64,000 bases of DNA from Eledone cirrhosa (lineage: Eukaryota), in the NCBI GenBank assembly GCA_964016885.1, contig OZ024742.1:178250001-178314000 (forward strand), read 5' to 3'. The translations under genes and the position numbers were made by a program. The first letter of the stretch is position 1; each line of letters opens with the position of its first letter. Below the pieces are notes generated by a model. The model was not told where the DNA came from, searched no databases, and worked only from the letters and a program-made list of their open reading frames with translations. Positions 21,055 through 57,322 of the stretch are shown one piece after another.

Positions 21055-21352
21055 TAATAATAATAATAATAATATTAATAATAATAATAATAATAATAAT
21101 AATAATGTTTTCTTTATTAACCACAAGGGTTTACATAAAGTAGACATTAAGGACAGTACAGGACAATACAGGGCGGTACAAATGCGCATTTTTGCGTGTA
21201 AAAAAACAGAGGATGTAATAAAAAAATAACGATGAAAAATTCCCCAATAGAGGGGAGACTTCCGAGGGACATTTGTGGAGAAAGCCCATTAAAAGGCCAC
21301 AGTGACCCTGACCACCAGGGCAAGTGCCCTCTCCCAGTTTTCCACCTTTAAT

Positions 21353-24300
21353 TTACAGACACATACTCAGAGTAGGCCCATTCACTCGGGCCATACTTGC
21401 TTCTCTCACCCATCTTTCAACAAAATGCTGGGAAGAGAGCACTTCCCTCTCTACCCTGATTTTCTTTTTCAAATGAAATTTGAAAAAGTTAATCAGGGCA
21501 TCACCGAAGAGGTACGTGCTCGTCTTCAACCTCTTCAAACGTGTCCACCATACTATCTCTTTCGCCATGGCCACCAGACAGATAAAAACTGCCTGCCCTT
21601 CCCGGCTAAACGAAGAGTGCAGGGCAATCGTCACGATGGACTCAGCTGATAGCCGGATCCGTCCTACACGTGACAGCAGGTGTTCGACATAAACTCACAA
21701 GTCAGCAATGCTCGGACACTGGACGCGTGCGTGCAGGACGGTTTTGTCGCCCTGCGCGCATCTCGGACATGCCCGGCTGACGGCACCTCCATGCCTGTAG
21801 AGTTTATCCCGAACTGGCAAAGCTCCTCGGTAGCACTGCCAGGCCAGGGATTTCTGGAAGTTGTCCATAGGCCCCGGCCCGAAAGTCCTTCCAAAGAGAT
21901 TGGCTAGTTGATTTTCGTCGACGCCTAGAGTTTCTCCAAGTACGTCGTCGCTCTTCCCCTCCACTAATACTCTATAGAACGCCAAGGTGGAGTTTCCACC
22001 GATCACATTGCCCGATTGGTCGAGGGCTGTGAGCGCCTGAAGACATTCCAGTCTCCAAGCGCTCCCTCTCGGTCTTCGCTTGACCCAGGACTGCAGCTCC
22101 GTCAAGGAGACGAGCTGGGGAAAGACGTGTCTAGCAAACGGCGACCACACCTGATCACCGTCGAGGAAGAGGTGGAGATGTCGTAGCCTGAGCGCGTGTC
22201 TGCGCCTCATCAGCCACGGCATGCCCCGCCCTCCACGTAGCGGGTGTTGACAGCAGATGGACCGCCTGACCATCGGAGCGCGTCCCTTCCACAAAAAGCG
22301 AAAGAGCAAACGCTCCAGCGCAGTCAGGCGGGGCTTAGGACAAGGTACGACGGTCAGGCGGTAGTAGATGACGGACGTGATGTACGCGTTAGCCACCTCC
22401 GCTCGACCTTTCAGGGATAGCTTCCTCTCCGCCCATTTCTGGGTGAGGGAAGCCACCCTCTCGTCACCTCGTCCCAGCTTTTGTCCGTCTGGAGGTCCGG
22501 ACCGAACCAGACCCCTATAAATTTAACCGGACCGTCCGTCCAGCGCCCGACGATGCTGTTGGGCGGCATGGACCTGCCTCTCCAGATGGCGAGCTGCAGA
22601 CCCACTGACTTTTCCTGGTTGATCATTGCTCCTGTCACCGCTTCGTATTCTCTCAGTGTAGTGCCGATCGCCTCGATGTGTTTGGCGTTCGACACCACGA
22701 CGGTGACATCGTCCGCATGTGCTGACACGGATCTTCCGCATCCTAGTTCGCGCGGGACCCCCTCAACGTCTTCAGTTTGTGCAGTAATGACTCGAGAGTC
22801 AATACGTACAAGAGGGACGAGAGGGGACATCCTTGCCGGACCGAGCGCATGATGTTGAACGATTCCGAAAGGTGACCGTTCACTCTCACCACAGAGCAGA
22901 TGTCGCTGTGCATGGCAGCGATTCAGCCTGTGAGGTCGGGGCCAAAGCCAGACGCCTTCAGGACTGCCGCTAGGTAACGATGGTCGACCCTATCGAAAGC
23001 TTTCGACTGATCTAAATTGATCAAGGACCCACCCGCGCCAGGTTCCCTAGCTACCCTCTCTACGAAGTATCGCATGAGATGGAGGTTGTCGTGGATGGAT
23101 CTGTCGGCAATGGTGCATGTCTGCGCCTCTCCCCCCAGACCACCAACGACAAGCCCAACCTCTTTGCTAGCACCTTGGCCAAAATCTTGAACTCTGTGTT
23201 TAGCAGAGTTATGGGCCTGAAATTATCTATGTTATCACCCTTGTTCGGATCCTTTCTCAGCAGCGCCACCGCTCCTCGGCTCACAGAACTGGGAATTCTC
23301 CCGTTCTGTTGCCAGTTGCAGTAGACGTTCGCCAAGAGGCCTCCGAACAAGTCTGGCATCTGTACGTAAAGTTCATAGGGCAGACCATCCAAACCAGGCG
23401 ATTTACTCCTTGTTCAGCCAGTCATTGCCTCCCATACTTCAGCGGCCGTTATCGGATTTTCGCAACACTCCGCCTCAGTGGCCGAGAGCCGCGGTAGTCC
23501 GTCGAGGTAGACACTAAAGTCTATCCCTCGATCCCGCCGCCGCTGCCCCCGAACAGTTGAGCGAAGTGTCGCTGAAAAGCTTCACACATTTGCCAGGGAT
23601 CGAGTAGCATGCGCCCGTCGTGGTCCACCAAAGACCGGATCGTGGCTTTGTTGCCACGACGCGCATCCGCCATTGACCGGATTTCGTCCCCTCGTGTCTG
23701 AGAGCACGCACCCTAGCTCTGACAACGCAGCCTTCGTGCTTTGCATTGAAGAATTGATCAAGGGCCAATTTCGCCGCAAGTACGTCGGTCGTGATGCCTT
23801 TGCTAAGCGCCTCGTCTAATTTTCTAACTAGTTCACCCTCTGCTCTATTTTTCTCTATAGCTAAAGCATTACTAAACCTAATGGCCTCTATTCTAATCGC
23901 TCTTTTCAGAGCAAACCACCACTTGTTGTTGACGATGGCCCCCGTCAACGCTCGCTTAACTAGTTCGCTAATCCGGTCTCTGTAGGCCTTGCGCGCTGGT
24001 AAGGACGCGTTTAGCTTCCAGTAGTCAGGTCCTCGTCTATGAAGCCTATCTAAGTCAAGCACACAGATCACAAATTTGTGGTCCGTGTAGCTAACTATCT
24101 TGTGGACAGCCTATGCTAGACCTATCTATTTCCCTACAAAATACTCTAGATATGATCTGGATGACCCGATACGGTTTGTCCAAGTCCACATTGGCACATT
24201 CGGGAAATCCAATCGCTACCTGTCAGACAGTTCAAAACTCCTGAGCGGGTTGGTGAGGCTCTTTCACCCTCCTCCCCTATCCGCTAATCCCACACATTCC

Positions 24301-24754
24301 CAGCGTGCATCGAAGATCCCGTTCCAGTCGCCCACTAACACTAAAGTGCGGGACGTTCCTAGAAAGGTTTCCAGACGCCGGAAGAAATCAGGCCGCCCTG
24401 CTCCTGTCGGGGCATAGACAGCCACTAGCCTGAAAGCTTGCCCGTCTCCGCTGGTCACGTCCAGCACGACCAACTTACCTTCTGGGTCCAGGAAGATGGC
24501 CCGTATGGCGAGACCCAAATCTCTCCGAAAAATCACAGCAACTCCCCCCCCCCCCCAAATCCAGGACGGCTGGGAGATGCGTACACATCGTAGCCACCGA
24601 AGATCTGTGCGAAGGCCCGTGCTTCGGAGATTCTAGTCTCGCTGATGGCCACTACATCTATGTTTAGTGACCTGATGTCGTTGAGCAGGTGGCCCTGCTT
24701 CCATGACGACCCCAAGCCACGCGCATTTATGCTGCCTATTCTGAGTGAGGTCAT
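21353..24754 (-). pseudogene. E1 ORF2 (APE-RT-CCHC), frameshifted
   Basis: INARGL, SET, GDWN, DHK, GLDGLPYE, NFRPITLLN, HADD, CPRC..T..H...C. Confidence 0.92.
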
Positions 24755-24788
24755 GTTGAAATGGAGTGGAAAAGATGGGAAGACCACT

Positions 24789-55132: not shown

Positions 55133-55164
55133 GTTGGATGAGAAACGGGGCAAGTGAGAAAGGG

Positions 55165-57010
55165 TCACTTACCTTGATCGTGTGGTGAAGGGACAGTAGG
55201 ACCGTCTCTTTCGCTGGTCATGGGTGTTTCCAAGAGGATGTCGGTGTATATCCTCTTGGTAACCGACCCTCTGAAGTCTCCAACTGCGTTGGGGAATTTT
55301 TGTTTTAAAAGTTTGTAATGTTCTATTTTGATTTCAATGATGTTTATGTTTGTCGGGAGAGTTCTTGGTGTTGGTGGGGTGTAGTATTTTTTTCTGTGAT
55401 GTCTGTGTACTGCTTTATATATTGTAAGAGTTCTCTATTTGCCATGTTTATGGCTGTGTACTTTTTGGCGGAAGGGGTGCTTTTGTTGCTGTTTTCTTGT
55501 TGTTGCTGTTGGGTGTGTGTGTTTTGTTGTGTTTGCGATGTTGGTGTCTTTGGTGATTCTGGTGATGGTGTGGTTGTTGTTGGTGGTGATGCTTTACCCC
55601 TCTTTGCCTGCCTTCACTTTTGGAGGGTGAAGCTAAAGGGTTTTTCCTTTTTTGTTTTTTGTGGCAGACCGTTTGCCACTTCCCTCCCGCCTCATACTCC
55701 ATGTCAGATTCCGTGGCATCTGGGAGGGGTATGAACTCCACTGCTGTTGGTGGTGGTAGTGGGGCCCGCTCCGGCGATTTTGCCGCCGGTGTAGCTACTA
55801 CGACTGTTGGTGTTGCCTCCACAGCTGCCGCTGTTTAGTTGTCCGTGGCCTTGGTATGGGTGCCACGGACGTTGCCCTCCTACTCGCCATGGAAGAGTCT
55901 TCTGCCTATGTTGCCTGCCCTGCTCTTGGTAGCAGCTGATCAGGCGTCGGAAGGAGGGGGCCCTCTTCTTCGCTGTCTTCTGCGGGAAGAAGGCCCTGAG
56001 ATGACCCTTCTGCCCACAGATATAGCACTTTGGGCGTCTTCCTTCCACGCTTATAGGGAGTTGGAGCCCTTCTTCGAGGTCTATGATATCTGGGATGGCC
56101 TCGATGCACTCCTGGTCAGTCTGTATTAGCATTTGCATGCCTATTCCTGACCAGTTCTCTCTTCCCATTCTCTGCATTTGCCAGCCAGTACAGACGCGGC
56201 CAGCCAAGGTATGGGCACGTCGGCAGGATCTGGGTCACTTTGACCCTCACAATTTTCTGCCCGCAGTAGGAGCGCACCAAAACTATCTCCTCACTCTTTA
56301 GGGTTTCCAAAGAGTGAGACTTCGCCTCTTGGGGGTGGCGAAAAGTACATCTACTGTGGCGTACCTTTTGCCTCGGATGATGTGGGTTTTGCGCGCCCAG
56401 ACGCACCCCAAGGCCTTTGGGATTTGAGCTCCGTGGCTCTCTCCACCCGATGTGACATATTGCTTACGGTGCGGTAAGTCACCGTGCGCAGCTGCTGGTC
56501 TTTGAAGAAATCGGGTGGAGGTTTCAGGGAAACTATATTGTCGTTTCTCGACACCATGGTTCTTGTGACTGCCATATCCTCTTCCGTGAGTAGCACTGTC
56601 TCTATATTTCGGGCCACACCTGCGAAAGAAATGGCCCCTTTTTCAGCGGCACCATTATTGCTGCCGCTACTGCTGTTACTGGTCTTGTTGTTGGTGCTGT
56701 TGCTGTTGCTACTGCTACAAACGGTGGTGTTGGTGTTGTTGCTGTTATCACTCTTGTTATTGGTTGTGTTTTTGGTGCCACCGTTGTTGTTGTTTTCGGT
56801 GCAATTTGTATTGTTGCTGTTGGTGTTGTCGTTGTTTATTTTCTTGTTAGTGGTGTTAATATCGTTGTTGCATTTGTTGTCATTTTTTTTCTGTTGTCTG
56901 TATTTTGGTTGACGCTGTTATTGTTGTAGTTGGAGTGGTAATTTTTTCAAAATTAGTGTTCTGTGTTGTTGTCTTTGTTCACGTTGTTTGTGGTGGTATT
57001 TGTTGTATGA
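55165..57010 (-). pseudogene. E3 ORF1 (CYICGQKGHLRAF knuckle)
   Basis: Fragments similar to E1 ORF1; start uncertain. Confidence 0.7.
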
Positions 57011-57322
57011 ATTTCACTAACCCTCCTCTCAACTTTTACGCCGTTGTCTCACGACAGCAGACGTATTGCTGGGGGGGGGGGCGTGGTTCAACCATGTTTT
57101 TTTTGTTTTTTTTTATTTTCAAAAGTAAAATGTTCAAATATTGTTCAAATATTTGGGCCAAAAGGCCCAAATATTATACTTTCCCCTTCACAGGGCAAAG
57201 TCTAAGGGCTTATATCCCTTACACAACAAGAAAAATTAAGCAACAAATAATTATAACAGGTAAATAAAGCGACTTACTGGGAGTGAGTAAAAAGCATCCG
57301 AACAGACCAATAATAATAATAA

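Follow-up and report, generated by a model that had tools for sequence, protein, structure and literature searches.

Whether closely related retrotransposons that share one genome can divide its microsatellites between them, each lineage landing in a different repeat, is the question raised by a 64,000-nucleotide stretch of DNA from the mollusc Eledone cirrhosa (GenBank assembly GCA_964016885.1, contig OZ024742.1, positions 178,250,001 to 178,314,000 of the forward strand), the whole of which is referred to here as the window. A tblastn search of the window with the intact 1145-aa second open reading frame (ORF2) of one resident copy, named C, located seven copies of a retrotransposon that lacks long terminal repeats (non-LTR) and has an APE endonuclease, a reverse transcriptase (RT) and a CCHC finger. 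All seven are on the minus strand, and the tract coordinates place a microsatellite on both sides of each, with copies E1, E2 and E3 in (AAT)n and copies A, B, C and D in (GATA)n. This agrees, in both placement and repeat type, with the original prediction, which was made from the sequence letters alone. The prediction had also separated the two sets by the residues that precede the CCHC finger, and these were found as described, namely GGAVS in E1 and E2, RGAVS in E3 and an RPGRDP insertion in B, C and D. Copy A begins downstream of this spot and was assigned by its DNA similarity, which is 84% to C.

Partition of the lineages between repeats

The genome searched comprises 3.0 Gb. For each of C, E2, E3, B and D, 30 loci were fetched with the 3' region as query, together with 30 found by the Pfam zf-RVT profile, 30 by an outside relative and 60 for G, a young AAT family; a further 80 are extensions of loci already fetched or of further listed matches, giving 350 loci in all (numbered below with the prefix L). 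With the window, these yielded 421 3' regions, seven of them cut by the end of a locus, which reduce to 337 distinct copies, of which 311 were scored. For scoring, E1, E2, E3 and G were binned as the AAT group, and A, B, C, D and H, a subfamily described below, as the GATA group.

The presence in one genome of two lineages with distinct repeat targets is confirmed by the flanks of these copies. ATT-type sequence follows the 3' end in 158 of the 171 AAT-group copies (150 with at least two ATT units and eight with one), 13 have other flanks and none has a TATC-type flank. In the GATA group, TATC-type sequence is present in 125 of 140 copies (92 with at least two TATC units and 33 with a single TATC-type start), 15 have other flanks and none has ATT. 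Tabulated by subfamily, repeat type thus tracks lineage without a single cross-over among the 311 scored copies (Fisher p 9e-84, or 3e-72 without L251-300, for which the query included the flank), and the claim that close relatives have different repeat targets is borne out genome-wide. The zf-RVT search, which is blind to lineage, returned 30 loci of the AAT group, and almost every one had an ATT end. First-look candidates numbered 805 to 3983 for single family queries and 44,774 for zf-RVT, figures that are not copy numbers. A closer lineage was sought in the genome with the C-terminus of the outside relative and none was found, the best match having 40% identity. A family related to C with a different last base was considered, from one copy, to be (TA)n-specific; this was rejected, as two of 30 copies lie in (TA)n and 20 of 30 in (TATC)n.

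Young, intact copies are present in both groups. For C, all 40 scored genomic matches are 100% identical over 601 bp, and eight of 20 extended loci have an open ORF1 of 592-597 aa together with an open ORF2 of 1145 aa. For G, 40 of 40 scored matches are identical over 301 bp, with an open 1139-aa ORF2 in 16 of 20 extended loci, and the D family likewise has intact ORF2s.

In structure and in targeting the elements conform to the Tx1 clade, to which they appear to belong, an assignment made by these features, the trees described below including no named Tx1 reference. Their ORF2 has matches to Pfam Exo_endo_phos and RVT_1 over the cut-off, and to zf-RVT under the cut-off (E 4e-5), in the N-terminal APE, RT and C-terminal CCHC finger layout of the Tx1 clade (L1 group). 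In C, G and H, an ORF1 of 593-636 aa contains one C-X2-C-X4-H-X4-C, and a separate ORF1 with a CCHC zinc knuckle is a feature of this clade. Target specificity in the Tx1 clade has been judged by more than 20% of flanks being of one type (PMC4494074), compared with 158/171 and 125/140 here, together with target-site duplications. A named Tx1, Kibi or Koshi reference was absent among the matches of the homologue searches, the cluster look-up and the atlas.

Target rather than tail

It had been argued in the prediction that a repeat found on both sides of every copy must be a target and not just a tail. This argument is valid for truncated copies only, because full-length copies bring a target-like 5' leader with them, and the 5' repeat of E1-E3 is consequently no independent evidence of a target. 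The conclusion itself stands, on the duplications found at interrupted sites. In 5'-truncated young copies of C these measure 15, 15, 17, 20 and 22 bp, and duplications of 8-13 bp were found for B, 11-17 bp for D, and 15 and 20 bp for H, often with 2-6 nt of microhomology; two longer values in this set, 25 and 27 bp, come from tandem contexts and are ambiguous. In the AAT group, an 18-bp duplication with one mismatch is present at L210, and one of 17-20 bp at L485 lies outside the element-borne (ATT) leader. That the repeats are targets and not tails is shown by these duplications at interrupted sites, which span 8-22 bp. C has also inserted at isolated TATCT sites away from any repeat (L181, L187), so a short motif suffices. 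Poly(A) tails are present in none of the 311 scored copies.

An alternative is that no targeting takes place, the repeats being tails and leaders made by the elements, or copies in repeats merely surviving better. The short repeat leader on full-length copies, a TATC leader at a non-repeat site (L193) and the small number of simply truncated AAT-group copies found are all compatible with such an origin. Nevertheless, duplications that contain unique sequence start exactly at the element end, the partition is already present in young copies of 99-100% identity, and better survival would not yield 0/311 cross-overs between lineage and repeat type. The absence of targeting is therefore largely refuted and can be considered highly improbable.

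The 5' junctions of truncated GATA-group copies are also target-like in 47 of 65 cases, with ten adjoining Tx1 sequence and eight other. In GATA-group copies at L104, L123, L127, L128 and L112 the 5' junction adjoins other Tx1 sequence or reversed repeat, and these are possibly 5' inversions. The leaders of full-length copies resemble the element's own target, with (ATT)5 in 20 of 20 G copies, TATC or TCTA at the end of the leader in 10 of 10 C copies, and one identical minisatellite 15-mer in 12 of 13 H copies. Truncated young G copies were sought, and 38 of 40 extended loci (L281-L300, L472-L491) align from base 1 or 32, the other two being internally deleted. In C, by contrast, the alignment extends to base 1 in only 10 of 30 copies (L001-L030, L181-L200). 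This excess of full-length G copies over C perhaps stems from the longer (ATT) leader or from processivity. Copies of G often stand in head-to-tail tandems, and at L074 there are tandem fragments of about 39 bp that hold no more of an AAT-group element than its 3' hairpin and end, with (ATT)n spacers.

Phylogeny and a third target

Phylogenetic trees, comprising a quick tree and a smaller, careful LG+G4 tree, were built with relatives that include no named Tx1 references. The GATA families and H form a clade with a Shimodaira-Hasegawa approximate likelihood ratio test (SH-aLRT) value of 99 in the quick tree and support of 100/100 in the LG+G4 tree, and this clade is marked by the RPGRDP insertion, which neither the AAT group nor the Argonauta protein nor the outgroups have. 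The AAT group lies on one side of a branch, with the root of the whole group receiving 89 SH-aLRT in the quick tree and left unresolved by the LG+G4 tree. The two were predicted to be sister lineages; that they are two lineages with distinct targets holds, but sisterhood is not established by these trees, in which the AAT group may represent a paraphyletic, ancestral assemblage.

The closest named ORF2 homologue, from Argonauta hians, has 67% identity over the RT region. Metagenome relatives are single copies of 21-55% identity, six of which were inspected and had no microsatellite flank, and these are uninformative on the ancestral target. Outside relatives of about 38-50% identity fall into clusters P0007, P0010 and P0030, with 352-732 members on long contigs, suggesting that another genome contains a large expansion of a related lineage.

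Subfamily H is nested among the GATA families, and a GATA-only clade is rejected by the approximately unbiased (AU) test (p 1.4e-6). With a flank-free query, 26 of 30 H copies were found in a degenerate pyrimidine-rich minisatellite (roughly 33-37 bp) and 0 of 30 in (TATC)n. The same lenient minisatellite test gave 6/36 for C, 4/46 for D, 1/33 for B and 0/171 for the AAT group. The H loci examined were L412-L441 and L301-L314. The minisatellite lies within a dispersed repeat, the shared ends of which look like inverted termini beside TA, and this host repeat may be a non-autonomous DNA transposon. The H insertion site, TATATC(A/T)A, is a near-match of the GATA motif, so that the shift is small in sequence and large in genomic address.

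Nick sites and the endonuclease

The best explanation of the partition, to which a probability of roughly 70% can be attached, is that each lineage has its own APE motif, nicked on the purine-rich strand, and that target-primed reverse transcription starts from a fixed RNA end. In this view the AAT group inserts at ATTATT in AAT repeats and the derived clade at TATCT in GATA repeats, the different landing sites likely being due to APE endonucleases that nick different short motifs. The nick would fall at about 5'-AGATA^GA in the GATA clade, at GATATA^GAG in H and at ATAAT^R in the AAT group. Reverse transcription, primed by the target, would begin from the RNA end just behind the conserved hairpin and AATAAA, with 0-3 nt of pairing, and a second nick about 15-20 nt away would lead to the duplication, with the full-length cDNA annealing through its leader. 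Since target sequence would be left on both sides of each insertion, tandem arrays could grow.

Identity between the groups is 61.5-66% in the APE domain versus 80-82% in the RT domain (61.5% and 80%, respectively, for C and G), and D and H have 86% APE identity. The predicted APE model (predicted confidence, pLDDT, 94) has human L1-EN as its best match, with a template modelling (TM) score of 0.83-0.85. At the predicted tip of the betaB6-betaB5 hairpin, the position of which comes from a weak PDB 2v0s alignment and from the predicted model, NRS is present in 38 of 38 GATA-clade copies and NR(I/M/L) in 38 of 38 AAT-group copies. The nicking profiles of L1-EN have been shown to depend on the betaB6-betaB5 loop, and nicking by Tx1L-EN in vitro is confined almost exclusively to its own target (PMC1950540).

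Several observations weigh against this explanation. The loci are best-scoring matches and no random draw, and 26 of the 337 distinct copies had no readable terminal motif. The statement in the prediction that no copy lies in TA, CA or GA tracts is true of the window; genome-wide, TA- or TC-rich tracts hold six of the 140 copies of the GATA group, making the specificity strong and not absolute. Among shortened AAT-group copies, only 13 of 60 have ATT at the 5' junction, with 35 adjoining other Tx1 sequence, through either internal deletion or nesting, and 12 other. The 5' junction evidence for this group is thin; its families here are older and have undergone rearrangement, and copies of G, which is young, are almost always full-length. 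Within the endonuclease, the hairpin-tip residue is one of 39 lineage-diagnostic APE positions and reflects a single AAT/GATA split, and H retains the Ser there though its target has moved; in addition, loop grafts between distant enzymes did not transfer specificity in a modular fashion (PMC1950540). Moreover, in pure repeats the phase of the nick is inseparable from pairing between RNA and target, and such pairing may play a part in target choice beside the APE domain.

A different reading is that the RNA, and not the enzyme, remembers the target. The endonuclease would have only a preference for AT-rich flexible DNA, the transcript would be cleaved downstream of AATAAA (a signal about 10 nt from the end of the element) and extend into the repeat of the donor, and pairing by this read-through tail and by the 5' leader would pick the target, with a target switch arising from one donor landing in a new repeat. 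AATAAA is found just inside every 3' end while poly(A) tails are absent, suggesting that priming is internal; full-length copies have target-like leaders whatever the site (H 12/13, G 20/20, C 10/10); junction variants have 1-2 nt of microhomology; and H and D have the same hairpin-tip sequence and similar APE domains, yet different sites. However, insertions at TATCT-only sites, (TA)n and (TC)n gain no 3' repeat units, which limits pairing to a few bases at most, and a short interspersed element (SINE) with its own transcripts, described below, has the same ATTAT start. In addition, Tx1L-EN alone is sequence-specific in vitro (PMC1950540). Target memory carried by the RNA is considered unlikely, and nicking of lineage-specific motifs is preferred. 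It is tempting to speculate, at low confidence, on a retargeting series from AAT to GATA to minisatellite, in which the RNA would carry the current target at both ends and re-aim with few endonuclease changes, the AAT-group enzyme also driving the SINE; a single Tx1 system would then mould large parts of the AAT and GATA repeats in this genome.

A SINE with the AAT-group hairpin

A 185-bp SINE is found beside E1, E2 and E3. Its head is of tRNA type, judging by what are presumably A and B boxes, identified by eye, and an Rfam search of the SINE gave no match. One window copy (45471-45655, minus strand), which has the CTTGT-loop 3' hairpin and the ATTAT target in common with the AAT group, is followed at its 3' end by (AAT)n (45397..45470), and a second (57324-57506, minus strand) adjoins the 5' tract of E3. 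Other copies in the window lie at 62520-62705, 8077-8263, 45080-45264, 44440-44555 and 26725-26818.

Among 100 distinct SINE copies in the fetched loci, 91 are followed by ATTA, a proportion that may be inflated as the loci were chosen for their Tx1 neighbours. Twenty-six informative duplications of 9-19 bp start with ATTA (one with GTTA) and are preceded by a pyrimidine in 24 cases, giving an insertion site of Y^ATTAT. The 3' ends of SINE and Tx1 align through a 4-bp hairpin with a CTTGT-type loop, the shared end being about 25 nt. In a test of ten related sequences, with the structure chosen by the analyst, seven cells were changed on both sides of the hairpin, a number reached by 0 of 500 shuffles, and slid controls gave 0-2. 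At L345 and L485, a SINE and a G copy have duplicated the same 17-mer.

Stringent LINE-SINE pairs have a 3' stem-loop in common (PMC3747384), and the SINE described here resembles them in its conserved 3' hairpin, with compensatory changes, as well as having the same target and duplication length as the Tx1 elements. It is quite probable, on this sequence comparison, that the SINE is mobilised by the AAT-group Tx1 machinery. Mobilisation by a Dong/R4 element instead is a doubtful alternative, although Dong targets TAA (PMC3812793), no other recently active LINE class of Octopus vulgaris is as numerous as Dong-R4 (PMC13282606), and the Tx1-SINE hairpin is short, at four pairs in the ten sequences and the analyst's structure. 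Against it are the CTTGT loop and compensatory pair changes common to the SINE and Tx1 ends, the agreement of the 9-19 bp duplications with those of Tx1, and the shared 17-mer. Mobilisation of a SINE by a Tx1 element has been described for SINEU and Tx1-Mar (PMC4494074), and the SINE here similarly has a target in common with a Tx1 family. Unlike SINEU, which has snRNA heads and poly(A) tails and is without a LINE-like 3' half, it is headed by a tRNA-type sequence, ends without poly(A) and has a 3' hairpin like that of Tx1.

Organisation of the window

The seven Tx1-type copies in the window are on the minus strand. E1 (21107..26700) is an apparently full-length AAT-group copy, decayed by frameshifts and stops, in which tblastn matched residues 1-1141 in seven pieces and ORF1 remnants persist. 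It is flanked by (AAT)n on its 3' side (21055..21106) and 5' side (26701..26725), where the 3' end of a diverged SINE copy comes next. The A-B-C-D array begins with the (GATA)n 3' flank (31106..31167) of A (31168..31724), a short 5'-truncated GATA-group copy with ORF2 residues ~1023-1145 and the 3' untranslated region. A (GATA)n spacer (31725..31791) separates A from B (31792..37589), a full-length GATA-group element with frameshifts on the basal branch of the GATA clade, and another (37590..37669) precedes C (37670..41395), a young GATA-group copy without ORF1, the intact 1145-aa ORF2 of which (37934-41371) contains APE, RT and CCHC. A third spacer (41396..41439) is followed by D (41440..42286), a 5'-truncated member of a second young GATA-group family with (GATA)n on its 5' side (42287..42343). 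E2 (45711..51503), an apparently full-length AAT-group copy with 91% identity to E1 and an (AAT)n 3' flank (45690..45710), is separated by (AAT)7 (51504..51524) from E3 (51525..57308), an apparently full-length, decayed copy of a second AAT-group family with (AAT)5 on its 5' side (57309..57323).

Since a single (GATA)n array holds A to D and a single (AAT)n array holds E2 and E3, the window contains only three independent tracts, and the common strand of the seven copies is not surprising. The truncated copies (A, C and D) are all of the GATA group, and E1-E3 appear full-length. Tracts of at least 15 bp comprise 30 AT, seven AC, four AG and four AAC, versus nine AAT and six AGAT, and the AT, AC, AG and AAC tracts hold none of the seven Tx1-type copies. 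An internally deleted Tx1 remnant (43819-44420), in which ORF2 residues 340-443 are fused to 5'-region sequence, ends at an AAT/SINE site.

Penelope-like elements had been predicted to sit in the TA, CA or GA tracts, and one was verified, at 8431-13779 between (TA)n tracts, with inverted terminal repeats of about 770 bp, an RT and GIY-YIG ORF (9100-11424) and an upstream ORF (11331-12326). Near-perfect palindromes between (TA)n tracts are present at 28920-29306 (99.7% over 387 bp), 1730-2094 and 1273-1638. A non-LTR fragment (5669-7071) has no Pfam match, and its C-terminal RHD...RPD motif presumably resembles a restriction-like endonuclease.

Comparison with known elements and significance

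Both microsatellite targeting and change of target are already known in the Tx1 clade. The AAT group has the same trinucleotide target class as Dong, a member of the R4 clade, in which the endonuclease is C-terminal and restriction-like. It differs from Dong in its N-terminal APE and C-terminal zf-RVT and is without the R4-clade endonuclease feature, so that use of AAT/TAA by the two would be convergent. Kibi targets (TC)n and Koshi (TTC)n in teleosts, and crocodilian Tx1 families target (TTCC)n/(TTTC)n (PMC4494074, PMC3812793), with ACAY, AC, TC, TTC and, for Dong, TAA listed as microsatellite targets (PMC3812793). The Eledone elements are likewise APE-type and inserted in microsatellites, with related families on different repeat units and, as in Kibi and Koshi, a repeat that is pyrimidine-rich on the sense strand (ATT, TATC). 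They differ from Kibi and Koshi in their mollusc host, in the presence of both target types as young intact families in one genome, and in their (AAT)n and (GATA)n targets, which are unlisted for APE-type elements in the available portions of PMC4494074 and PMC3812793. In place of the (TC)n/(TTC)n-like insertion that characterises Kibi and Koshi, the targets here are ATT, TATC and a minisatellite, with three of 140 GATA-group copies in (TC)n. Tx1L inserts into Tx1D, Tx1-Mar into Mariner-N4 and Tx1-9_AMi into Harbinger (PMC4494074), and H similarly inserts into another dispersed repeat with what may be DNA-transposon ends. Unlike them, it targets an internal degenerate minisatellite unit and is nested among microsatellite-targeting families.

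To this the present elements add AAT and GATA as targets, a third target nested within the GATA clade, intact enzymes that coexist in one genome, and a SINE with a hairpin in common; the third target and the SINE had gone unnoticed in the prediction. No AAT- or GATA-targeting Tx1 families were found in the literature covered; most subscription journals and Repbase/Dfam fall outside that coverage, and prior annotation there is quite possible. The supplementary target lists of PMC4494074 (Fig. 3, S5), also outside the comparison, may name similar targets. Thirteen recently active L1-Tx1 families are reported from Octopus vulgaris (PMC13282606), and the word "target" does not occur in the available portion of that survey.

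The way in which APE-type retrotransposons switch targets is relevant to programmable gene insertion, and young intact natural ORF2s that have different targets at a short distance provide a natural test set. The pairs C/G and D/H are close and differently targeted, so that exchanges between them would be modest in size and readily interpreted. The link to the SINE points to a likely partner of an abundant SINE of cephalopod type, and to a Tx1-SINE pair that would depend on the hairpin. In genomes of this kind, microsatellite markers based on AAT and GATA are likely to have retrotransposon flanks in common in many cases.

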